From a virus (taxonomy: Duplodnaviria; Caudoviricetes), in IMG/VR virus record IMGVR_UViG_3300016667_000182, positions 1 through 25,529 of that record: 25,529 nt of DNA; one strand, given 5' to 3'. Under the pieces are notes generated by a model, which was not told the origin of the DNA, ran no database searches, and worked only from the letters and a program-made list of their open reading frames with translations. Shown in pieces: positions 5,716-25,529 of the stretch (its first letter is position 1; each line of letters starts with the position of its first letter). A program made the position numbers and the translations under genes.

Positions 5716-5984
5716 TGATGAGCAAGCGTGATCCCATAACACACCGCACGCCAGAGCAGATGAAGAAACTATCGCGTGGTTATAACGCGAAACCCGAGCA
5801 GGTTCAGAAGCGTGCGGAGCGGAATAAGGCTCGTGCTATGCTGATGAAGGAGGGTCGCGTTCAAAAGGGTGATGGTAAAGACGTCGACCATAAGAAGCCC
5901 CTGCGTCATGGTGGTAGTAACTCTCGGAGTAACCTACGGGTTGTCTCTAAGAACCGTAATCGCGGGTGGGTCGATGGCGTCTAA
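5715..5984 (+). CDS. Small basic HNH endonuclease-like protein
   Basis: KDVDHKKPLRHGGSNSRSNLRVVSKNRNR is an HNH-type motif; TAATG coupling to the upstream gene. Confidence 0.8.
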   Translation: MMSKRDPITHRTPEQMKKLSRGYNAKPEQVQKRAERNKARAMLMKEGRVQKGDGKDVDHKKPLRHGGSNSRSNLRVVSKNRNRGWVDGV

Positions 5985-6164: not shown

Positions 6165-6391
6165 TAGTCCTCATCCTCGTCATCGACGATGTTTATGAGC
6201 AGATGTTTGAAACGCTCTAAGAGCCACACGGCAGTCATGCCGTCAGCAAAAGAAGACGCGAAGTACTCCTCGCCTTCCTCTGTGTAGCCAAGGATCATGA
6301 CCTTCTCGAGCTTACCCTTGGCTTCCTCAAGGATATCATCTGGGTCAAGATCTAAGAGAGTTTCGCCGGTAAACTTGATGACATTGGACAT
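6164..6391 (-). CDS. Hypothetical acidic phage protein
   Basis: Strong RBS (CAGGAGGCCACC-ATG); 75 aa; coupled to the next gene. Confidence 0.75.
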   Translation of the reverse strand: MSNVIKFTGETLLDLDPDDILEEAKGKLEKVMILGYTEEGEEYFASSFADGMTAVWLLERFKHLLINIVDDEDED

Positions 6392-6445
6392 GGTGGCCTC
6401 CTGTAACCCGACTATGTCAGGTCAGAGTTACAGGGGTGTAACCAC

Positions 6446-9839: not shown

Positions 9840-10793
9840 TTAGATCAAGTCGTCTAACGCGGCATCCAATTCGTCCTCGAACGAAGAGGGAGCAGCAGGC
9901 TCAGGCTCGGCTGGCTTAGGAGCTGCCTTGGGAGCTGCCTTCTTCGCAGGCTTGGGAGCTTCGGTAACTTCGCCAGTAACCGGATCGTGCGGCACGGGCG
10001 CTGCCTTGGGAGCTGGGGGTTGTTCGAACACCTGTTCCAGTGCCGGAGCAGAAGCCTCAGCCGGAGCCTGATAGTCAGAGGCTTCGGACATGATGCGGGC
10101 CACACGGGGATCTGTCTGGTAGGCGATAACCTTCTTGGCTTCCTCGTCGGTCAGCGGACGGATCGCGCTGAACACGAACTTCGGATATGCCTCTTTGGTA
10201 TCGAACGAGATGCGTACCCCGATGGAGTTATAGGGATAGCCCAGCGCGTCCATCTTAGTGCCGAACGTAGCGATGTCGCTCAGCGATGCGGCTGGCACAC
10301 GCAGCAGCATGGGGCCACCATAAACTTCGTTATCGAGATCCTCGAGCGGCACGATGGCGAGGCGCTTGCTATCTGAGCACGCCTTACCTTGCTTGCCAGC
10401 CGGGGTGATGCGGGAGCCAAAAGCGTTCTGCTTGCAGGTAGCACAGGCCGAGTGCTGCTTCTTAGGAGCGTTGGCATCCGGTGTTACACCGTTAGATGAC
10501 CAGCAGTCGGGTGCGGCTGTCGAACCTTCTACATACCCGTTCTCGTAAAAGATTTTGGACAGGTGTCCAGAGGCTTTGACAATGACGACTTCGATAGATG
10601 CACGCGGACCATCGCCGTCTTCGCGCATGAGGTCGCGCTCTTCGCCACGGTACTTGGTGCGCCACACCTTGCCGCGATAGCTGATGATACCAAAGCCGGA
10701 AACGACACCAGCAGAGAGGTCATTATTGGTGGCGGTGTTTGCGAATACCGTCGAGACGGCACCGAACTTGGATGGGATAGTAATGTTGCTCAT
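9840..10793 (-). CDS. Putative ssDNA-binding / annealing protein
   Basis: Position in the replication module; conserved-looking PDCWS, CATCKQN and KACSDSKRL segments; Pro/Ala linker and acidic tail (FEDELDAALDDLI) as in phage SSBs. Function inferred. Confidence 0.5.
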   Translation of the reverse strand: MSNITIPSKFGAVSTVFANTATNNDLSAGVVSGFGIISYRGKVWRTKYRGEERDLMREDGDGPRASIEVVIVKASGHLSKIFYENGYVEGSTAAPDCWSSNGVTPDANAPKKQHSACATCKQNAFGSRITPAGKQGKACSDSKRLAIVPLEDLDNEVYGGPMLLRVPAASLSDIATFGTKMDALGYPYNSIGVRISFDTKEAYPKFVFSAIRPLTDEEAKKVIAYQTDPRVARIMSEASDYQAPAEASAPALEQVFEQPPAPKAAPVPHDPVTGEVTEAPKPAKKAAPKAAPKPAEPEPAAPSSFEDELDAALDDLI

Positions 10794-10808
10794 AGGTACT
10801 CCTTGGGA

Positions 10809-11207: not shown

Positions 11208-11222
11208 TGGTTACTCCGGTGG

Positions 11223-12779
11223 TTACGAGTGGTCCTCGAACATTTCGAGTAGGGTGTTTTGTACTTTCTGCTTAGACCTTAGACGCGAGTACATACGCTT
11301 CTCTGCATCCGTCGACTGAAACATAAGGACTAATTGCTTATGCTTCTGCCCCACACGGCGGATGCGGGCATTGGCTTGCTCGAAGATCTCGAGCGACGTG
11401 GTAGGGGCAAACCATATAATAGTATCAGCGGCAGTCAATGTAACACCGTGTGCCATACACTGCGGGTGGGCTACTAAAACCCGTAACTTATTTGTGTTTT
11501 GGAACACGTTGAAGATGTGGTCACGATGGAGGCGGGGGGTCTCTCCCGAGACCGTCTCGCACTCGATGCCCTCATTAAAGAGCCGCGTCTTGATGCCGTT
11601 CAATGCGTGAACAAACGGCACGAAGACAATCACTTTACGCTCAGTACTTTCGATGGTGTCGACAAGAGCCTGTAAGCGATTGTCGTTATCGAGAGTTACA
11701 ACCTCACGCTCCTTCGCATAGACCCATCCGGCGCTGATCTGAAGCAGCTTATTAAGAACGGCTCCTGCGTTCATAGCAGTGATCTCTTTAGCAGCGATTG
11801 CAGCATATGCGTTCTGCTTCATCTGCTTATAGATCTTGTCCTGCTTCGGACCCATTTCGATATCCTGCGTCCGCTCAACCACTTCAGGTAATTCTAATAT
11901 GTCGTCGAGCGTGTAGCGCACAGCAGGCTGTAGTGATGCGAAGGCTTTCTCAATAGCGTCAGGCTTAGGTACCCACTTAAACTGCGTGATGCGCTGCATA
12001 AGATCTTCGCGGTAACGAGAAAAGTAACGCGGCACTGTGTTGGGAGTTACGATGGTGGCTTGTGCCCAAGCGTCCGTTGGTTCGTTAGGCGTAGGCGATC
12101 CAGTCATACCCCACACCCACGGGAAGTTCTTAGCTACATCTCTCGTCTTCTTAGTGCGGTCTGATCCTCCATTACGGTAGACGGCTAGTTCGTCGAGGCA
12201 CAGAACGTCGATATCGGTACGCTTCTTTATGTCCTCTGCGATGATCTTCAGGCCATCGTGATTGATGACGTAGATGTCGTGATCTTCAGCAAGACGCTCT
12301 AACCGTTTTGCTCGTGAGCCATGTAAAGTTACGCAAGACAAGTGTGGTAGGGTGTTAAAGACTTCGCGAGCCCAAGTGAAGTTCATCGTCGATAGCGGTG
12401 CAACGACAAGCATACGTTGGGCTAGGCCAACAGAACGAAGGTAATCAAAGGCCCACAATGCGCTCTTTGTTTTTCCGGTACCCATGCCGTTAAGGACATA
12501 AGCACGCGGGTTCGTCGTAAGCATTGCGCAGGTCTTCTTCTGGACTTCGAATGGTTTCCCACCGGCCCAGTCGTAGTGCATCAGTATCGGTGCAGGTACT
12601 TCATAACCAAGGTTACGAAGAACGCGCGTCTCCTCTAGACCGTGCGGCAGCACGATCAGTTGGTTACTCCCAAGAGTAACTCTCTTCGCTGCGGGGAAGA
12701 GGTTTGCAATGTCGGGGCGGTAAGGCACCCCGACAGCACGGTGCTTAGTAGATAAATGGATCATTGGTGGTCGAGCCAT
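11223..12779 (-). CDS. SNF2-like superfamily 2 helicase
   Basis: Motif I GMGTGKT, Ia VVAPLS, II LDELA, III MTGSP, V HGVTLTAAD, VI QANARIRRVGQ. Confidence 0.92.
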   Translation of the reverse strand: MARPPMIHLSTKHRAVGVPYRPDIANLFPAAKRVTLGSNQLIVLPHGLEETRVLRNLGYEVPAPILMHYDWAGGKPFEVQKKTCAMLTTNPRAYVLNGMGTGKTKSALWAFDYLRSVGLAQRMLVVAPLSTMNFTWAREVFNTLPHLSCVTLHGSRAKRLERLAEDHDIYVINHDGLKIIAEDIKKRTDIDVLCLDELAVYRNGGSDRTKKTRDVAKNFPWVWGMTGSPTPNEPTDAWAQATIVTPNTVPRYFSRYREDLMQRITQFKWVPKPDAIEKAFASLQPAVRYTLDDILELPEVVERTQDIEMGPKQDKIYKQMKQNAYAAIAAKEITAMNAGAVLNKLLQISAGWVYAKEREVVTLDNDNRLQALVDTIESTERKVIVFVPFVHALNGIKTRLFNEGIECETVSGETPRLHRDHIFNVFQNTNKLRVLVAHPQCMAHGVTLTAADTIIWFAPTTSLEIFEQANARIRRVGQKHKQLVLMFQSTDAEKRMYSRLRSKQKVQNTLLEMFEDHS

Positions 12780-13737: not shown

Positions 13738-13922
13738 GCAACCCGTTCCAATTTAGGCGGTCTCTGCGTGAGTTCTTTCAGCAGTTCCCGCGCCGCATAC
13801 TCTGTGTGGCACTGGGCCACGGTGATGTAGGTATTCCCTACGCTACGGCGGGCGACGAACCACTTGCCAGTTTTAGTGGTGGGCATGTGGATGAGCGTGT
13901 ATTGGGTGGGTGTTCGCATCAC
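13734..13922 (-). CDS. Hypothetical protein, last gene of the cassette array
   Basis: Start (GTG/ATG) and RBS supplied by repeat copy 1; ATGA overlap with the exonuclease start. Confidence 0.7.
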   Translation of the reverse strand: MMRTPTQYTLIHMPTTKTGKWFVARRSVGNTYITVAQCHTEYAARELLKELTQRPPKLERVA

Positions 13923-13951
13923 TCTTTCTCCCCAAGCGCAGCGCGGGCTTT
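13917..13951 (-). repeat. Cassette junction repeat, copy 1
   Basis: + strand catcactctttctccccaagcgcagcgcgggcttt; identical over 35 bp to copy 2. Confidence 0.97.
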
Positions 13952-14131
13952 ATTTAAAACCTCTTGTGCTGAGATTGTTTTCAAAAGCCGCGGTTCGCCG
14001 TTTTCTTTGTAAGATTTGACATTGATCGCAAAATCTTCCGGCTCAACTTCCAGTGCCTTACACATGATTTCAATAAGTGTGCTCGTGCTTTGCAACGCTT
14101 CACGCAGCCGTTCAACAATGTCAGTCATCAC
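13919..14131 (-). CDS. Cassette ORF (MTDIVERLR...ARAALGEKE)
   Basis: Bounded by repeat copies 2 and 1; 70 aa. Confidence 0.8.
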   Translation of the reverse strand: MMTDIVERLREALQSTSTLIEIMCKALEVEPEDFAINVKSYKENGEPRLLKTISAQEVLNKARAALGEKE

Positions 14132-14160
14132 TCTTTCTCCCCAAGCGCAGCGCGGGCTTT
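14126..14160 (-). repeat. Cassette junction repeat, copy 2
   Basis: catcactctttctccccaagcgcagcgcgggcttt. Confidence 0.97.
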
Positions 14161-14331
14161 CAGCATAGCATCAGCCATTTCGTAGGCTTTTCGTGCTGAC
14201 ATTTCCGCAACGTTTGCCGGTGCATACATCGTCCCAAGGGCGATGCCTGCAAAATAGTCCCGTAGTGTCATGCCGCATTGCGGTTCGCATAATTCTGTCT
14301 TGTGTGGGAAAGCACTTGGATTTTCCATCAC
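14128..14331 (-). CDS. Cassette ORF, GMTLRDYFA-type small phage protein with ARAALGEKE tail
   Basis: PSAFP...GMTLRDYFA...AYEMADAMLKAR is a recurrent small phage protein pattern; bounded by copies 3 and 2. Confidence 0.8.
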   Translation of the reverse strand: MMENPSAFPHKTELCEPQCGMTLRDYFAGIALGTMYAPANVAEMSARKAYEMADAMLKARAALGEKE

Positions 14332-14360
14332 TCTTTCTCCCCAAGCGCGGCGCGGGCTTT
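14326..14360 (-). repeat. Cassette junction repeat, copy 3
   Basis: catcactctttctccccaagcgcggcgcgggcttt; one substitution versus copies 1 and 2. Confidence 0.97.
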
Positions 14361-14639
14361 TTTCATTGCCTCTGCCATTTCATGAACAGCCGTATCGTTT
14401 CCGGGAACGATACCCATCAGTTTGTGCAGAACATGATGGCAATCACGCAGCGCCTCTTCCAGTTGCTCAATGCGTTTGGCCTGCGCCTCAATGCAGTCGG
14501 CGGCGCGTTCAATTACATCACAAGTGCAAAAGTTGTTTACACAGTCATCGCACTCTTCGCCCCGCAAAAGCCTTATCAAATCATCTGGTGTTCTTGCCTT
14601 ACTTCTGCTGGTGGGTCGCGTCACAAGATTGTCGCTCAT
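14328..14639 (-). CDS. Cassette ORF with Cys cluster and coiled coil, ARAALGEKE tail
   Basis: CDDCVNNFCTC, then AADCIEAQAKRIEQLEEAL; ATGA coupling with GAGGAGG RBS. Confidence 0.75.
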   Translation of the reverse strand: MSDNLVTRPTSRSKARTPDDLIRLLRGEECDDCVNNFCTCDVIERAADCIEAQAKRIEQLEEALRDCHHVLHKLMGIVPGNDTAVHEMAEAMKKARAALGEKE

Positions 14640-14920
14640 TTCATGGCCTCCTCATATGCAGCGAGGGCGTCGAACAGTTCCTGCTCGCTCTTGGTCATCA
14701 TCGGATAGACCTCCGGCGCGAAGAACGACATGCTCACGCGGAAAGGCTTCTTAGGAACGTCGAACATGTGCGACTGCCATTCGTAAGCCAGTCGCCAATA
14801 CGCCTCCTGCACGACCTTGCGAGCGGCCTTCAATTCACGCTCCTTGATATCAAGGACGACTTTCAGCCGGTCGTTCTCGGCCACCAGTTCGTCGTAGTAG
14901 TCCATCATGTCACTCATCAC
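14636..14920 (-). CDS. Cassette ORF without the canonical tail
   Basis: Starts in repeat copy 4; coiled coil ELVAENDRLK; ends ALAAYEEAMK. Confidence 0.75.
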   Translation of the reverse strand: MMSDMMDYYDELVAENDRLKVVLDIKERELKAARKVVQEAYWRLAYEWQSHMFDVPKKPFRVSMSFFAPEVYPMMTKSEQELFDALAAYEEAMK

Positions 14921-14944
14921 TCTTTCTCCCCAAGCGCGGCGCGG
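14915..14944 (-). repeat. Cassette junction repeat, copy 4
   Basis: catcactctttctccccaagcgcggcgcgg. Confidence 0.96.
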
Positions 14945-15147
14945 ATTGATCGTCTCGTGTCCGCCAATATTTGCTTTGCTGCTGTGTCGCCAAGAATTGC
15001 GCCTTCTGCTTTGCAGACCATGACATGGGCAAAACGCAACTCTGTTTGAAGCCGTTCTATTTCTTCCTTTAATCGGCGGTGCGATCTTGCTGTGTATTGG
15101 TCTGAAACAAACTGGTCCCAGTATGCGTCATCTAATCCAGCCATCAC
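14917..15147 (-). CDS. Cassette ORF (EEIERLQ...IRAALGEKE)
   Basis: Bounded by copies 5 and 4; 76 aa. Confidence 0.78.
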   Translation of the reverse strand: MMAGLDDAYWDQFVSDQYTARSHRRLKEEIERLQTELRFAHVMVCKAEGAILGDTAAKQILADTRRSIRAALGEKE

Positions 15148-15176
15148 TCTTTCTCCCCAAGCAGCGCGGCGCGAGC
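15142..15176 (-). repeat. Cassette junction repeat, copy 5 (in-frame 3 bp insertion)
   Basis: catcactctttctccccaagcagcgcggcgcgagc; encodes ARAALLGEKE. Confidence 0.95.
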
Positions 15177-15464
15177 GTTGTCTTCTGCCCTCTCGTAATC
15201 GGCCATCATTAAGCGAAAAATCTTGTTTGATGCGACCGCTCTACTTGGCTTCACTTTCTCGTCTTCGGAACGCTTGAGCAAGGAAGTAGCTGCTACAAGC
15301 GCACTCAATGCAATCGTCAGCGCCTCACGCAGCTGGTCTATTTCATCCTTATAGGCACGGATCAAACTGGCCGTTTGGTTGTCTCTCCCCCAAACGTAAT
15401 CAGTTACGGTTGGCTTGCCATCATCCCAACGCACATCGTCAAAATCTTTAATGTCTTTCATCAC
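15144..15464 (-). CDS. Cassette ORF (start revised to the GTG/ATG of copy 6, MKDIKDF...)
   Basis: In-frame GTG 15464 / ATG 15461 lie in repeat copy 6 with its RBS; EIDQLREAL coiled coil. Confidence 0.78.
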   Translation of the reverse strand: MMKDIKDFDDVRWDDGKPTVTDYVWGRDNQTASLIRAYKDEIDQLREALTIALSALVAATSLLKRSEDEKVKPSRAVASNKIFRLMMADYERAEDNARAALLGEKE

Positions 15465-15490
15465 TCTTTCTCCCCAAGCGCGGTGCGGGC
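15459..15490 (-). repeat. Cassette junction repeat, copy 6
   Basis: catcactctttctccccaagcgcggtgcgggc; encodes ARTALGEKE. Confidence 0.96.
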
Positions 15491-16819: not shown

Positions 16820-17191
16820 TCATTGCCCTCTCGCACTGTCAGGCGAGAGCTCTTTGTGCGAGTTACTCTTGGAAGTAACTCCACGGATCTTTTCCTTCAT
16901 CGCTGGTTCAAGCCAATAGCCGACTGACTGACGCGACTTAATCTCGATGCCGTATGGTTTAAGCCTACGGCGCAAACGATAGATCGCTACTCGTCCTGAT
17001 GCGGCAAGGCCAAGCTGCTGCTCTAACATCTCGTGCGTCACATACGATAACGCCACGAGTAGACCTAATATCCTACGAAGTGATGGTGGTAGTTTGTACT
17101 GCGCTGTGAGTGGGTCGACTAGTTTTAGTGTTCCTTCTAAGTCTCGTATGCGTTCGCGAAGTGCTTCGATCTCAGCGACTTTGTTCATCAC
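16820..17191 (-). CDS. Winged-helix DNA-binding protein (OmpR/PhoB C-terminal-like, no receiver domain)
   Basis: RVAIYRLRRRLKPYGIEIKSRQSVGYWL fits the recognition helix plus wing pattern; N-terminal coiled coil. Confidence 0.75.
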   Translation of the reverse strand: MMNKVAEIEALRERIRDLEGTLKLVDPLTAQYKLPPSLRRILGLLVALSYVTHEMLEQQLGLAASGRVAIYRLRRRLKPYGIEIKSRQSVGYWLEPAMKEKIRGVTSKSNSHKELSPDSARGQ

Positions 17192-17348: not shown

Positions 17349-17359
17349 GCAGCACCGAG

Positions 17360-17427
17360 AAAAGGAGCGATGGGTTTTACCCCATCGCTAAGTCAAGGGA
17401 GGAAACGCCCAAGGAAGATCCTCGAAC
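17360..17427 (-). ncRNA. MmgR/SuhB (alpha-r8)-like small RNA
   Basis: 5' stem GUUCGAGGA-UCU-UCCUUGGGC, then the decamer UUUCCUCCCU, UGACUU and terminator AGCGAUGGG-GUAAAA-CCCAUCGCU-CCUUUU; own promoter upstream. Confidence 0.78.
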
Positions 17428-17500: not shown

Positions 17501-19369
17501 TCATTTTGCGTCACCGTATGACGGGCCACAGTCGGCTTCTGCTGATAGGGGTAGCCCCACTGCCCAGCTCGGTGCCGTACTCATCTCATCGAGAACCATC
17601 TGAGTTACGACCGGGACCATGTCATGCGGCACGATGTAAATAAGTTCGTCATGGACCTGACCAGCGAGCTGGATGTCGTAGGTAGCGAGTTGTTTACGAA
17701 GGCGCAGTGCAGCATCCATCACCACGATGCGAGCCAAGGCTTGGATGATGTTCTCGAGCAGCTTGCCACCAAAGATCTTCTTGCCCTTGGTCCGACCGTA
17801 GTCGAACACCCACTGCCCATCGTCCTGCCTTAGATTATGGTAGTAGAGCGACAGACCTGACGGCAGGTCGACGCGGTTCTTGCGAGCGGTAACCTTGCTA
17901 GTTACCGGACCAAGGCTAAGCGGCTCGTCGGTTGCAGCGATGTAGGACAGGGCATCGTTGAGCTTGGACCATGTCGCTGGGATGTTGGGATAGGTCGTGC
18001 GGTAGGTCGTAACGATACGCTGTGCCTCGTTATCGGATAGGTCGATCTCCTGACCCAGTTGGTTCTTAGACTGGATCTTGACGGTCGCTTGGAACTTAAC
18101 CCAGCCCATGCCGTAGCCTAGTCCCAGCACGGCGGTCTTACCAATAAACCGTTCAACCTTATCGGCCTTGGTGACAGGCTTACCGAACACGACAGACGCG
18201 AAGGATGAGTAGACGTCCTCGCCAGCGGCGAATTGCGCCACGAGGTTATCCTGCTGCGCGAACCACGCGACCATACGTGCCTCAATCTGTGCTGCGTCTG
18301 CGGCCACGACAGAGAAGCCATCGGGTGCTCTGAGTGCCTGACGTAGCTTACCGCCACGGGGGAGGTTCTGCATGTTGATACCCCAGTCGCCGGAGAGGCG
18401 GTGCGTGTGGGCACCGGAGTAGCGGAGCGGCATGGGCATGATAGCGCGCTTTCCATCCAGCCACTGGAGGGTAGCGATGCGCAGGAACTTCTCTGTGCGG
18501 CTCTCTTCTAGGGTCGATTTAAGTCCCAAGCGAGCAGACACAAGAGCCTGTACATCTGGATTTTCGTGCTCCTCTAACTCAAGGAAGGCATGGTCCGTCT
18601 TGGAGAAGGCGTAGGTTGACCGGCCAGTTGTGAGCGATGTCTTCATCGGTGGCTCGATCCCAAAGGCACGTAGGGCCTGAGCAAACTTCTCATTGCTCAT
18701 GAGATCGTCGCGTGATGTTAGACCGGCACGGGCGAGCAGTGCCTCCTTACTGTTGCGGACTTCGTGTAAGTGTTCGGCGAGCAGGTTACTATCGAGAGTA
18801 AACTCTGGTTCAACAGCACAGCGTAGCACCATGTCTTGGATGACAAGTTCTGACACCGGGAATGGTTGTAGCTTCTTATAGATTTCACGACAGAGCTCGA
18901 CATCGTTAAGCGCATACTCTGCGAGTTGCTCGTACAATCCAGCTTGCTTCATCATCGCAGCGTTCATGCCAGCGACCTTCATGATCGCTTCGCCCTTAAC
19001 ACCGACACCGAAATGATTAGCTAGTGAGGATAGCGATAGTGAGGTGGTGTTATAGGCACACTTCGCACGCGCCATGCCGAGCGTATCGATCATTAGCTTC
19101 GGCACGATACCGTAGCGCCATGACAGGATACTCATGTCGAATAAAGCGTTATGGCTAACAACCTTTGAGCTAGCCAATAGATTGTAGTTGTCGAACACCC
19201 ACTGCTTAAACTCGTGTTCATCAAGCCAGAATGGCGCGTCATCATTAAGCGCGACTGCGGCACCGATGCACTCGAAGCGAGGATCTAAGATATACTCGAC
19301 GGGTGTCATACGACGCAGTGAGTATTCGGTGGAATAGTATGTTTCGAAATCGAGATAGATTGTCTGCAT
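17501..19369 (-). CDS. polA: Family A DNA polymerase with 3'-5' exonuclease
   Basis: Exo motifs LDFET, HNALFD, YALND; polymerase motif A DAAQIEAR, B RFIGKTAVLGLGYG, C VHDE. Confidence 0.95.
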   Translation of the reverse strand: MQTIYLDFETYYSTEYSLRRMTPVEYILDPRFECIGAAVALNDDAPFWLDEHEFKQWVFDNYNLLASSKVVSHNALFDMSILSWRYGIVPKLMIDTLGMARAKCAYNTTSLSLSSLANHFGVGVKGEAIMKVAGMNAAMMKQAGLYEQLAEYALNDVELCREIYKKLQPFPVSELVIQDMVLRCAVEPEFTLDSNLLAEHLHEVRNSKEALLARAGLTSRDDLMSNEKFAQALRAFGIEPPMKTSLTTGRSTYAFSKTDHAFLELEEHENPDVQALVSARLGLKSTLEESRTEKFLRIATLQWLDGKRAIMPMPLRYSGAHTHRLSGDWGINMQNLPRGGKLRQALRAPDGFSVVAADAAQIEARMVAWFAQQDNLVAQFAAGEDVYSSFASVVFGKPVTKADKVERFIGKTAVLGLGYGMGWVKFQATVKIQSKNQLGQEIDLSDNEAQRIVTTYRTTYPNIPATWSKLNDALSYIAATDEPLSLGPVTSKVTARKNRVDLPSGLSLYYHNLRQDDGQWVFDYGRTKGKKIFGGKLLENIIQALARIVVMDAALRLRKQLATYDIQLAGQVHDELIYIVPHDMVPVVTQMVLDEMSTAPSWAVGLPLSAEADCGPSYGDAK

Positions 19370-19397
19370 GGCAGCTAACTCACTAGCGGTAGTGGTG

Positions 19398-19426
19398 TTG
19401 ACAGTTGGGACTACAAGATCTATTTA
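19398..19426 (+). promoter_or_regulatory. Plus-strand sigma70-type promoter in the PolA upstream gap
   Basis: Perfect TTGACA (19398-19403), 17 nt spacer, TATTTA; points against the surrounding genes. Confidence 0.55.
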
Positions 19427-19431
19427 TCTAA

Positions 19432-19506
19432 CAGCCACGGCGGTGGCTCTCCTTGGGTGGGAGTTAGTGGGCGGCGAGGTTGGTGGTTACCCTCGCCGCC
19501 CTTTTT
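19432..19506 (+). ncRNA. Candidate plus-strand small RNA
   Basis: Hairpins AGCCAC-GGCG-GTGGCT and CTCC...GGAG, then an 11 bp stem (19469-19479/19491-19501) with a T-tract on the + strand only. Confidence 0.55.
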
Positions 19507-19512
19507 ATTTGG

Positions 19513-20238
19513 TTACCACGTTAGTAACTGGCTCTGCTGACCCGTCTCTACCTTATGATGGTCCTCGAACCTAACTCCATAGTGCACTGGTGCATGTGCC
19601 TGTGTTGGTACCATAGTAGCTTTGGCAATGATGGTGTTGGTATCGATTATGATCTGCCTGCTACCATGAGGAAGGCTTGGGATAGTGCGGGGTATGGTGT
19701 TCTTAGATAGGTTCTTAGCATCGTCATCTAGGCCAGCTTCTTTGAGAAGCGTAATGATGCTTGGCATAAAGTACCGCACCTGACGCATGTTGGTACAGGC
19801 ATCGTTGAGTATCTCCAATGCAATCCGTGCGCGAGCGAACATTACAGCGATGGGGTACATCTTGTCGGCGTAGTCTTTAACGCAGTCGTAGAACGGCATT
19901 GACGGATCGATGGTGAACGCTTTGTTGGTAGCGTACTTAGGGAGTAGGCACTTAACCTGTTTAAGTCCGACGTCTATGTACACGGTGTTGTGCTCGCAGT
20001 ACCCATCGTTCATCTCATACTTTACAGGCACAGCTAACTTAATAGCGTGATTGTGCGCCGCAGGATGAAGGCCGAGCTCGTATCCACGTTCTAGGATTGG
20101 GACATCTTCTGGTGCGATAACGCTATTGAACACGGCACGCTGATCTACATCCAAGCTATAGATCGCGAACATCCTACGGTTAAGATCGCGTAGTGTGCTG
20201 ATGAGCATGGACAGTGTGTTTGGTTTAATTGCAGACAT
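19513..20238 (-). CDS. Hypothetical protein (start revised to MSAIKPN)
   Basis: AGGAGTTACC-ATG RBS at 20238; long ORF filling the gap. Confidence 0.7.
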   Translation of the reverse strand: MSAIKPNTLSMLISTLRDLNRRMFAIYSLDVDQRAVFNSVIAPEDVPILERGYELGLHPAAHNHAIKLAVPVKYEMNDGYCEHNTVYIDVGLKQVKCLLPKYATNKAFTIDPSMPFYDCVKDYADKMYPIAVMFARARIALEILNDACTNMRQVRYFMPSIITLLKEAGLDDDAKNLSKNTIPRTIPSLPHGSRQIIIDTNTIIAKATMVPTQAHAPVHYGVRFEDHHKVETGQQSQLLTW

Positions 20239-20300
20239 GGTAACTCCTATAGTTATGAATTGAGTGTGGGGATTGCAGGATTTCACGGCGATATGTTGCG

Positions 20301-20424
20301 CCTAACGAGGAGCCGAACCCTGCCTTGTCGCGCCTTCAGACCATGTGAGAAACGAAAATAAAACACATGCTGTCACGCTCACCCGACCCCACCTGCGGTC
20401 GTGGGTAGGAGCTTCCTCGTTAGG
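20301..20424. other. Multi-stem structured intergenic element
   Basis: Perfect 11 bp inverted repeat (20301-20311/20414-20424) enclosing two hairpins. Confidence 0.55.
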
Positions 20425-21697
20425 AACTTGTGATGGGGCACTCGACTACGTCGCCCCATGGATACTTGGAAGAGTGCTTGGAGATGTCACCCCACAGTAC
20501 AGGATAGGATGGCTCGGCTGATGGGAACGAACCGTCACCGTCAGTGAGATAGACAAGAGCGTCAGGTGTGAGATCGTGCTCGGCAATGTAGTCGAACACG
20601 GGGATGAACGATGTGCCGCCCCAGCCGGGTACAGGCTGAGCACGAAGTGCTTTGAGATCGCTAGCGTCCTCGACCTCGTCGACACGATGGACCTTGGCAT
20701 CGCACCACACAGCGAGCAAGCGACGTGGTTTAAGATCCTCGACAATACCTGAGAGCTCGGCGAAGAAGCGGTCGATGATGGTAGGATCGGCAGCGATAGA
20801 GCCAGACGTATCGATGGCTACTACGATAGTACCAGCAGCGTGACCTGAGCGACCCGGTGCGTAGATAGGATCTTTGCGAGCGATGAGGCGACGGTCAGGG
20901 CGACGCCAGTCATAGCTACCGGAGCCAACCTTGCGTGCAAAGAAGGCATCGATCTTCTCCTGCCACGGCACCTGCGGCTCGAGTACCTCGCCAAGCAGAC
21001 GCTCGATGCTAGCAGCTAACTTACCCTGAGCCTTAGCAGCAGCGAGGCCAGCAGCTACAGCTTGCCGCCACTCTGTCTCGTTACGCTCGGAGTTACCGCT
21101 ACCACCCTTACCATCCTCTGGTTGCAGATGCTCGTCGAAGCCACCATCATTACCGCCTCCGCCTTCGTCGTCGGTATAGACCTTGCGATAGACATCGATG
21201 GCACTGTCGTCACCCGTCGCAACACTGCGGTCGTGCAGTCCCATAGTTGGGAACGAGCCAACACCTGCGGTGATGAGCGCGTCGTTGATAACGAGATCAG
21301 TCGCCATGTTCATGGTCTTGTGATTGTACTTGATCTTGGTACCGTCTGAGTAACGGACCTCGCCTTGCTTGGAAAACTTCTTGGCCTGTCCGCAATGATC
21401 CCAGATACCATGCAGCACTTCGTGTGCGAGGATGAACACACGCTCGGCGAGCGGCAGCTTGAAGAATGTGTCAGGGTTGATGAGCACGTTGCTACCGTCA
21501 GTCGCAGCGTATGGTACGTCCTTGGTGAACGTAGCGATATACTCGGAGCCCTTGGGGTTCATCATGGTGTACAGGACATGAGAGAAGGCGGGGCAGTTCC
21601 ATAAGAAGGCGGCGCGTGTCTCAGTCCACAAGCGAGACTGGTGTGCAGTGATATCGCATGTTGAGATAGAGGATGCTGTGCGAGTTGCGGATGTCAT
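20420..21697 (-). CDS. DUF2201-like metallopeptidase + VWA domain protein
   Basis: AATDG, LAHEVLH (HExxH), NMATDLVIN; MIDAS elements DTSGS, GGTSF, YLTDG. Confidence 0.88.
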   Translation of the reverse strand: MTSATRTASSISTCDITAHQSRLWTETRAAFLWNCPAFSHVLYTMMNPKGSEYIATFTKDVPYAATDGSNVLINPDTFFKLPLAERVFILAHEVLHGIWDHCGQAKKFSKQGEVRYSDGTKIKYNHKTMNMATDLVINDALITAGVGSFPTMGLHDRSVATGDDSAIDVYRKVYTDDEGGGGNDGGFDEHLQPEDGKGGSGNSERNETEWRQAVAAGLAAAKAQGKLAASIERLLGEVLEPQVPWQEKIDAFFARKVGSGSYDWRRPDRRLIARKDPIYAPGRSGHAAGTIVVAIDTSGSIAADPTIIDRFFAELSGIVEDLKPRRLLAVWCDAKVHRVDEVEDASDLKALRAQPVPGWGGTSFIPVFDYIAEHDLTPDALVYLTDGDGSFPSAEPSYPVLWGDISKHSSKYPWGDVVECPITSS

Positions 21698-21702
21698 GGT
21701 GG

Positions 21703-21957
21703 TTACTCCTGATCTTCTGCGTTCTCGAAGATATCGATACCTTCGTCGCCGTCAAACGGATCGAAGGCGGTTACCGCAATGAGTGGGGCGTGCTCGTCGG
21801 AGATGAGTTGAGCGGCAGCGAGAAGGCCACGGGCTGATTGTGCAGCAGCTCGGCGCACGATATCGAAACGTGACTTATCTTTGAAACGGACCTTGAGTTC
21901 GATGGTGACTGTCTTCTGCATATCAGGTCTCCAGATGGCTTTGATGATTGGGTTCAT
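21703..21957 (-). CDS. Hypothetical protein
   Basis: 84 aa ORF packed between neighbours; start may be the internal MQKTV. Confidence 0.6.
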   Translation of the reverse strand: MNPIIKAIWRPDMQKTVTIELKVRFKDKSRFDIVRRAAAQSARGLLAAAQLISDEHAPLIAVTAFDPFDGDEGIDIFENAEDQE

Positions 21958-23625: not shown

Positions 23626-23652
23626 GGCGGTGGTTCCTATGATGGTTGGTTA

Positions 23653-24575: not shown

Positions 24576-25019
24576 TTAGTAACGGACTTTCTTTAGAAAA
24601 TCCTGTGCTCGTTTGCGTGCATCATCGTCTTGGTGGATGAGCATGTCTTTGATGATATCGGCAGCAGCCTGAAGCTGCATCCGTAGTTCTTTGGTTTTAT
24701 GTTCAAACGGGGAAGGCTTAGCACCATTCTCCAGTTTGTCAGTTACTTCCTGTGGTACCGACATAAGCGAGAGATCGATGAGCCTCTGCATCCTCTCTCG
24801 GAAACTATCAGGGGCCTGCTCTGGTGACTTAGTTGTCAGATCGTCGACGTTCATATCAAAGGCGGCAGCGATGGCTCGTAGGACTTTTGGACCAGCGGGT
24901 TGCTTGCCGACCTCGATACGTTGCAGGGTAGCGTGGTTGATGAAGGATCGTCTGGCCAGCTCTTGCTGTGACCATCCGTGGATCAGACGCATCTGCTTGA
25001 TCTTCGATCCAATGCTCAT
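24576..25019 (-). CDS. XRE/Cro-C1 family HTH transcriptional regulator
   Basis: IGSKIKQMR...WSQQELARRSFINHATLQRIEVG...LRAIAAAFDMNVDDL. Confidence 0.88.
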   Translation of the reverse strand: MSIGSKIKQMRLIHGWSQQELARRSFINHATLQRIEVGKQPAGPKVLRAIAAAFDMNVDDLTTKSPEQAPDSFRERMQRLIDLSLMSVPQEVTDKLENGAKPSPFEHKTKELRMQLQAAADIIKDMLIHQDDDARKRAQDFLKKVRY

Positions 25020-25052
25020 GGTGGTTACTTTTATAGTAATCCTGACCCTAAG

Positions 25053-25473: not shown

Positions 25474-25529
25474 GTGGTTACCTCTGTGTTACTTCCATAG
25501 TAAAAAACGACGGCGTGGTGGTTTACCAT

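Follow-up and report, generated by a model that had tools for sequence, protein, structure and literature searches.

A candidate family of multi-target antisense RNAs within the early gene block of a clade of ~60-kb phages

Small antisense RNAs are known from several phages, and in the sections of the cited paper that cover them, each characterised example (c4, sar and OOP) controls a single phage message (PMC12197685). The loops of the phage-encoded c4 RNA pair in trans near the ribosome-binding site of a phage mRNA, whereas lambda OOP, a 77-nt counter-transcript driven by a promoter of its own, acts on a phage message in cis (PMC12197685, same sections). The P4 CI RNA, as far as the accessible part of its description goes, is an antisense RNA that restrains the replication genes of its own phage and is processed from the transcript it controls, with premature termination through seqA/seqC (PMC4825925). 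Excerpts on alphaproteobacterial repABC replicons describe a ctRNA counter-transcribed in the intergenic region before the replication gene (PMC3155836). Multi-target repression is described, again in part of the source, for GcvB, which pairs immediately upstream of the Shine-Dalgarno sequence (SD) at an ACA-containing enhancer (PMC3879156). Rhizobiales RNAs with anti-SD motifs in their loops are treated in the available portion of PMC3927594, and host anti-SD RNAs are also the subject of PMC5461406, according to its accessible part. Here we analyze a short unit, encoded against the replication operon of a phage, that shares traits with several of these systems and whose predicted targets are the phage's own early gene starts.

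The window, that is, the whole 25,529-nt stretch of a 25.5-kb virus record (completeness 42%), carries late genes on the + strand in its left part and an early/replication block on the − strand. The first half of this block comprises an XRE gene, an AAA ATPase, a DUF2201 VWA/peptidase gene, gene h and a family A polymerase; the rest comprises an exonuclease, an SNF2 helicase, a gp33-like gene, an SSB-like gene and a DUF927 primase/helicase. The closest named phages are Rhizobium phage RHph_TM3_14A and its kin (polymerase identity 47%, identical gene order). Further relatives, here denoted by our own L and G labels, occur in Bradyrhizobium and Pseudolabrys assemblies, where other assembly labels may reflect binning noise. 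A cultured Bradyrhizobium strain also has the unit, on a prophage contig that carries an integrase. It interrupts the operon between gene h (19513–20238, − strand, 241 aa), which is convergent to the unit, with 5 nt between its stop and the 3′ end of the unit, and the family A DNA polymerase (17501–19369, − strand), the next gene and a candidate cis target. Gene h matched no Pfam or PHROG family. Its matches are with uncharacterised phage proteins only. The structure model is confident (pLDDT 86.6), and comparison with solved folds gave no match (best E 0.12; best Z 4.6; nothing usable in the Atlas), from which neither novelty nor absence follows; the protein may bear a remote likeness to Nmad5 proteins. 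The h family is fast-evolving and spans 220–260 aa. Three other features were recorded along the way. The RHph_TM3_14A annotation "putative integrase" (L039, 30610–33693) belongs to a homologue of the window's primase/helicase (43% identity). Six short genes at 13894–15488 of the window have in common a 20–30 nt repeat that runs from their last codons across the following SD to the start, resembling a cassette-like array. A Pseudolabrys contig (G003:C4) contains a prophage region twice, at 61504 and 123397, about 61.9 kb apart, which is either a tandem prophage or an assembly effect.

The initial annotation had proposed a counter-oriented sRNA gene, with a + strand promoter and terminator enclosing ~75 nt inside the minus-strand block, and all of its coordinates check. 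The −35 box (19398–19403, + strand) lies 30 nt upstream of the polymerase start, which is on the opposite strand, and its first five bases are kept in 27–29 of 29 family rows. The −10-like hexamer (19420–19425, + strand), which we take to be of the alphaproteobacterial sigma70 type by its consensus, retains its A in 26/29 rows and its last T in 27/29. Columns of the promoter spacer are conserved in at most 14/29 rows, so that the boxes are kept and the spacer is free; these column counts cover 29 rows, of which that of L039 is misplaced in the alignment. The predicted sRNA of ~76 nt (19431–19506, + strand), with its 5′ end placed from the promoter, has homologues (see below) and folds as three hairpins (−40.9 kcal/mol, z −3.9, 0/200 shuffles as stable). 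It scores 76 bits, as a training row, with R1, a model built from aligned family members. Hairpin 1 (19433–19448, + strand) is present in most members with variable sequence. Hairpin 2 (19449–19463, + strand) is the conserved core, with an anti-SD 5′ arm and a G/U-rich loop; the family consensus of this loop is UGUGGGU, and the window's version is shorter by one base. The intrinsic terminator (19469–19506, + strand) has an 11-bp stem (19469–19479/19491–19501), an 11-nt loop (19480–19490) and a T run (19502–19506) that places the U tail on the sRNA strand; 7/10 of its pairs show two-sided changes in the family. A simple scanner detected this terminator and missed the promoter, and an Rfam search returned no family at threshold for the unit. 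Contigs from RNA libraries (4/7 listed runs) partly cover the flanking genes and leave out 19338–19504, although contigs of this kind cannot reveal a 76-nt RNA or its strand.

How does this unit compare with described systems? Like c4 of P1 and P7 (C4, RF01695), within what the accessible source describes, it is phage-encoded and has loops complementary to the phage's own ribosome-binding regions, a likeness of complementarity only. Unlike c4, it comes with a promoter and a terminator of its own on the counter strand, it is predicted to target many early genes in place of a single antirepressor message, and an integrase is missing from many carriers; the window gave no match to the C4 covariance model at E ≤ 10. 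Unlike P4 CI, it lies on the strand opposite to its predicted targets, with its own promoter and terminator, and the SD regions that form its predicted sites are as much as 9 kb distant. The unit, described at first as reminiscent of P1 c4 or P4 CI, is a member of neither. OOP, whose pairing leads to RNase III-dependent decay of the mRNA, lies between the 3′ end of a regulator and a replication gene, and the unit is likewise placed as a counter-transcript by a replication gene, as far as the partial description of OOP allows the parallel. Unlike OOP, it ends at its neighbour's stop (gap −4 to +11 nt) instead of overlapping the coding 3′ end, and its conserved loop has cognate sites at a distance. 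The predicted counter-transcription directly before a replication gene, in the window and most members, also recalls the plasmid ctRNAs in the excerpts available. However, the best ctRNA family match (ctRNA_pGA1) reached 27 bits against a cut-off of 45, and the unit is not always beside the polymerase. Pairing of a plasmid ctRNA induces a terminator in the mRNA leader. For the unit, none of the 29 rows has a U tract after the hairpin when read on the gene strand. Like GcvB in the accessible account, the unit is predicted to pair just 5′ of the SD on several mRNAs, and its sequence points to traits of an Hfq-dependent multi-target sRNA of that kind (own promoter, intrinsic terminator, conserved exposed seed). 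GcvB, in contrast, is chromosomal, enterobacterial and directed at transport genes, with no sequence match to the unit. Unlike the loop-borne anti-SD RNAs, as partly described, it carries its anti-SD in a stem and has G/U-rich loops. It resembles suhB/MmgR (RF00519) in size, terminator and an 8-nt stretch in common, but the 10-nt pyrimidine core of suhB falls in an alignment gap and the score is 17.4 against 41 bits. The unit belongs to none of C4, CI, ctRNA or suhB.

Two other non-coding elements lie nearby. Directly after the polymerase gene, at 17351–17424 (− strand), the window carries a suhB/MmgR-like sRNA with an intact pyrimidine core (36.3 bits versus a cut-off of 41), which by its sequence is a putative phage copy of a host-type regulator; it is also present in L002 and L004 and not in L284, and no paper on a phage-borne suhB/MmgR-like sRNA was found in the literature searched. 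A conserved structured non-coding motif lies between the VWA gene and h (window about 20265–20345, − strand; L078 5749–5801; L039 18757–18795). It has no Rfam match, also appears in unrelated contexts (L081, L083, L084) and may serve that operon as a leader element.

The unit is retained well beyond the window's immediate relatives. In the four closest viral contigs (two lineages) it is kept while the flanks and the promoter spacer have diverged, and deeper relatives also carry it among the matches listed in viral, genome and metagenome scans (for two of these scans, the best 80 matches each, taken as listed). A quick polymerase tree placed it in 29/31 rows of one clade of ~60-kb phages (SH-aLRT 92), the exceptions being L178 and L181, and in 0/12 outside rows, which were scored by model misses that divergent units can escape. 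Among 15 aligned members, both sides have changed in 11/15 pairs, 95% of cells pair and 0/500 shuffles were as high, as the proposed sRNA gene would predict; the structure was derived from the same 15 sequences, which biases the slide control towards it. Hairpin 2 changed on both sides in 4/5 pairs while its loop columns remained invariant, whereas hairpin 1 keeps its shape across the family and not its sequence. On the sRNA strand, hairpin 1 has GNRA loops in L165, L166, L175, L176 and L094 and a UUCG loop in L177. The terminator loop is of a G-rich type in the window, L002, L004, L176, L167, L175, L174, L087, L085, L077, L284 and L086, and of unrelated sequence types in the other members (at least two types in all). 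At L079 4924–5009 (− strand), the hairpin 2 seed is present twice.

Membership was assigned at several levels of similarity. Outside its training set, R1 matched L171 (55 bits), L285 (47), L323 (39), L166 (33), L077 (29) and L094 (29). L284 and L287 were recovered by a pattern scan, and visual inspection of promoter, terminator and position added the divergent L085, L086, L091, L039, L090, L169 and L179. Across 151 genomes of the G001 family, the true R1 members were G001 and L323 only; 11 weaker matches there were rejected, having no match to window phage genes or to the h profile. Gapped pattern scans mostly returned unrelated matches (33/37 in one, 16/19 in another). L273 and L288 were not accepted as members, as they lack the gene context, and a hairpin 1 look-alike after the RHph_TM3_14A VWA gene is probably coding and was set aside. 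Three host assemblies contained no chromosomal copy of the unit. We regard it as highly probable that these loci form a real phage sRNA family. It is apparently undescribed: no published description was found in the literature searched, which covered few subscription papers.

Strand asymmetry bears on whether any RNA is made. The unit could be just an mRNA-stabilising hairpin after h beside a chance promoter. Both promoter boxes, however, are conserved on the counter strand only, and the U tails and stable tetraloops lie on that strand too, leaving such a reading extremely improbable. The gene strand has no U tract in all 29 rows, which rules out a bidirectional terminator, and a leader peptide or ribosome-binding site on that strand was ruled out by the absence of a start at consistent spacing.

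Position, by contrast, could be taken to mean that the RNA acts only in cis, as lambda OOP or the repABC ctRNA would, on read-through from h to polymerase, with the trans matches incidental. The unit adjoins the h stop in 25/29 rows (gap −4 to +11 nt), its promoter adjoins the start of the next gene, no gene-strand terminator is present, and the polymerase sits close behind h in L178, L181, L097, L183, L099 and L210, which are without the unit; the weak ctRNA_pGA1 match (27 bits, cut-off 45) points the same way. The polymerase follows the unit directly in the window and most members. Yet it is not the next gene in at least seven others, with other genes in between in L166, L171, L287, L094, L077, L086 and L091. 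Moreover, an RNA acting in cis is complementary to its target whatever its sequence, and still the hairpin 2 loop is conserved while the stem covaries; the excess of cognate start-site matches described below is a further point against it. Overall we consider action in cis alone unlikely.

Predicted target sites in the window were sought along the first 19.6 kb of the gene strand, with a correction for accessibility and with 40 loop-permuted RNAs as controls. Start windows make up 7.6% of the strand and hold 5, 8 and 9 of the top 10, 20 and 30 accessible sites. The controls averaged 0.9, 1.7 and 2.5 such sites and none matched the observed counts, in line with the proposed complementarity to start regions. 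The best single energy (−12.5 kcal/mol) is ordinary among the 40 controls; the positions of the sites are not. The top three accessible sites are the VWA, XRE and gp33-like starts, all reached through the terminator loop (19480–19490), which by its sequence is the predicted accessible seed in the window's lineage. The first covers 10 nt in the SD-to-start spacer of the DUF2201 VWA/peptidase gene (21697–21706, − strand; rank 1, −12.5 kcal/mol) and is kept in L002 and L004. The second covers 10 nt at the XRE gene start (25019–25028, − strand; rank 2), and the third is immediately upstream of the gp33-like gene's SD (11217–11226, − strand; rank 3) and is kept in L002. The initial annotation had named the VWA and XRE matches, which are exact, and two shorter ones, which are exact over 9 nt each (11218–11226 and 25474–25482). 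As loop targets, VWA and XRE hold up in rank but less well in evolution: both close lineages (L002, L003, L004) have lost the XRE match, and the VWA site remains in L003 and L004 although their terminator loop has lost its last three bases. Lower-ranking candidates include the SD of the SSB-like gene at 9840–10793 (site 10799–10807, − strand), which pairs with hairpin 2 over 9 bp and ranks 22 after accessibility; the gene's label rests on synteny only (PHROG: unknown function). In L004, one base is missing both in the RNA and in this SSB-like site. A further site (rank 8) lies at the second ATG, the inferred start, of the SNF2 helicase frame (12764–12772, − strand). At the AAA ATPase start, the terminator loop has a predicted site at 23626–23635 (− strand). 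The likeness of the RNA's 5′ part to this start, also noted at the outset, corresponds to an 8-nt hairpin 1 match (23626–23633), but it falls outside the top 30 accessible sites and its sequence varies. The second look-alike of the 5′ part, at 6389–6402, is located in start regions as well.

Compositional bias complicates these counts. The hexamer in the loop match, GGTTAC, is over-represented in the window (21 copies versus 5.2 expected), and 7/20 non-self copies lie just upstream of starts; the loop therefore matches a start-region motif of the window phage, and counts within one genome cannot separate targeting from bias. A genome-wide bias in this hexamer had been named from the start as a possible source of the matches: the positions of the sites exceed what loop-permuted controls give, but the hexamer is itself enriched and concentrated at starts. 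Short palindromes of a recurrent type overlap SDs or promoters clade-wide (window 16860–16879, 12663–12682 and 5917–5939; spacers of L171, L201 and L287) and could act as an operator or else account for the bias at start regions.

Comparison across the clade points to a different seed. The hairpin 2 arm and loop complement the SD plus the bases directly before it, and leaders fall within the top 5% of own-strand windows for AAA (9/13), SSB-like (10/16), primase (7/15), gp33-like (7/16), h (9/23), VWA (6/16), helicase (3/15), exonuclease (1/14) and polymerase (0/18), counts that are inflated because any SD pairs with the anti-SD arm. With the hairpin 2 loop alone, carriers exceed non-carriers for the AAA, gp33-like, primase, SSB-like and VWA leaders and not for those of polymerase, helicase, exonuclease and h. 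Carrier leaders are also C-richer (AAA 43% versus 22% C), and specificity for loop order is modest. The loop 5-mer precedes the SD at 29/289 carrier early starts, against 0/299 in non-carriers, 0/175 in hosts and 1/64 late starts. It is unevenly spread: L284 contributes 8/29, the window, L002 and L004 have no instance, and L178, which lacks the unit, has 1/9. Strong seed pairing occurs at 34/289 carrier early starts, versus 5/299, 3/175 and 1/64 in the same sets and a mean of 13 (max 22) over 30 composition shuffles. These counts take all ATG starts with a 4-nt SD core, with hosts sampled over 400 kb; the non-carrier set is 25 loci, 20 of them screened with R1, which misses divergent units (L086, L091). 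Pairing of the SD-to-AUG spacer with the terminator loop of the window occurs at 13/143 starts in phages with a G-rich loop (window, L002, L004, L077, L284) versus 0/146 in others. We conclude that the family-wide conserved seed is hairpin 2, to judge by loop conservation and predicted pairing, and not the terminator loop. The idea of one antisense RNA for several early genes thus extends clade-wide in its complementarity, but through another loop than first proposed.

The 5-mer contrast bears on the possibility that the conserved loop addresses the host, whether a host mRNA, a host anti-SD sRNA (as a sponge) or an RNA-binding protein such as Hfq. Conservation of the loop across phages at about 45–50% polymerase identity is consistent with such a partner, as are the 8 nt that hairpin 2 has in common with the same phage's suhB/MmgR-like unit and the weak suhB alignment (17.4 bits). 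However, a sponge would expose the purine-rich 3′ arm, and this arm varies in concert with the 5′ arm and so behaves as a stem; the loop 5-mer precedes 0/175 sampled host SDs (400 kb, ATG starts with a 4-nt core), and the three host assemblies have no chromosomal copy. A host-directed loop is improbable on this evidence.

Own and foreign RNAs were then compared on the same starts. Among 25 carriers with at least four starts, matches of ≥8 bp were found at 15.5% of starts for a phage's own RNA versus 6.5% for foreign RNAs (0/20000 permutations; outcome unchanged with 20 representatives), and coding windows showed no own-RNA excess (2.0 versus 1.4%, p 0.18). Phylogenetically independent swaps between disjoint lineage pairs gave 7 for, 2 against and 2 ties (p 0.09), which is not significant. 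Hairpin 2 seed swaps stood at 6:3, with control genes at 7:1 and pairs not all disjoint, sister-pair swaps of the terminator loop showed no cognate advantage (4 for, 7 against), and whole-RNA duplexes against the h leader gave no cognate signal (p 0.17), their energies being dominated by GC stems. The RNA matches none of its own starts in 7/25 carriers. Perfect 11-nt matches are found three times in L284 (all at SDs), twice in L085 and once each in L086, L285 and L167, and the AAA start of L284 carries both sites. The RNA of L091, in which the loop is lost, matches 6/15 own starts in another register, and that of L169 matches 2/9, both above any foreign RNA. Seeds and cut-offs for all these target tests were picked after the leaders had been viewed.

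These results also allow a reading in which the RNA is real and its complementarity a by-product, with start-region strings copied around genomes or biased clade-wide and hairpin 2 being such a string backwards. On the gene strand, hairpin 2 does resemble the clade's SD context, start-region motifs are over-represented and are also present in phages whose RNA fits them only with a bulge, and the tests on independent pairs fall short of significance. Against this stand the lack of a start codon at consistent spacing from the SD-like string, and registers that differ by lineage (hairpin 2, the terminator loop, the 5′ part in L091 and L169) with each fitting its own starts. We regard an origin as by-product as quite improbable.

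We favour, at a probability of roughly 0.55, a new family of multi-target antisense sRNAs that would lower translation of the phage's own early/replication genes, with the phage's own early starts as predicted targets. Host sigma70 would transcribe the ~75-nt antisense RNA from the unit's promoter, and its G/U-rich loops would pair with the ribosome-binding regions of several own early/replication genes, lowering their translation. The hairpin 2 loop may nucleate on C/A-rich bases just 5′ of the SD, with pairing then spreading along the anti-SD arm; in the lineage of the window, it would instead be the terminator loop that covers the SD-to-AUG spacer, so that pairing would occlude either the SD or the spacer. 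The two seeds are in the same order as their sites, which makes simultaneous use improbable, and one molecule can probably not use both at once. The unit may also damp the polymerase in cis, being antisense within the h-to-polymerase read-through with its −35 box near the polymerase start. Such interference fits the lack of a trans site at the polymerase leader and the close h–polymerase junction in phages without the unit.

The likely role of such an RNA is to set the timing or the dosage of the early/replication module, in integrating and non-integrating phages. The initial annotation had considered a lysis/lysogeny switch. A tyrosine integrase is present in 2/7 carriers that are ≥90% complete, and the other 5/7 have neither a tyrosine integrase nor a serine recombinase; a lysogeny switch is therefore not favoured. 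A wider and more doubtful possibility is that the early/replication genes bear a private ribosome-binding signature, absent from hosts and late genes, and that a co-evolving RNA combines trans shutdown, cis silencing of the polymerase and discrimination between lineages in an RNA-only master switch. An RNA directed at such a common signature of many own early genes would give phages a novel, repressor-free means of timing their programme or of keeping out relatives, and it would explain why the early ribosome-binding contexts of the clade differ from those of the host and of the late genes.
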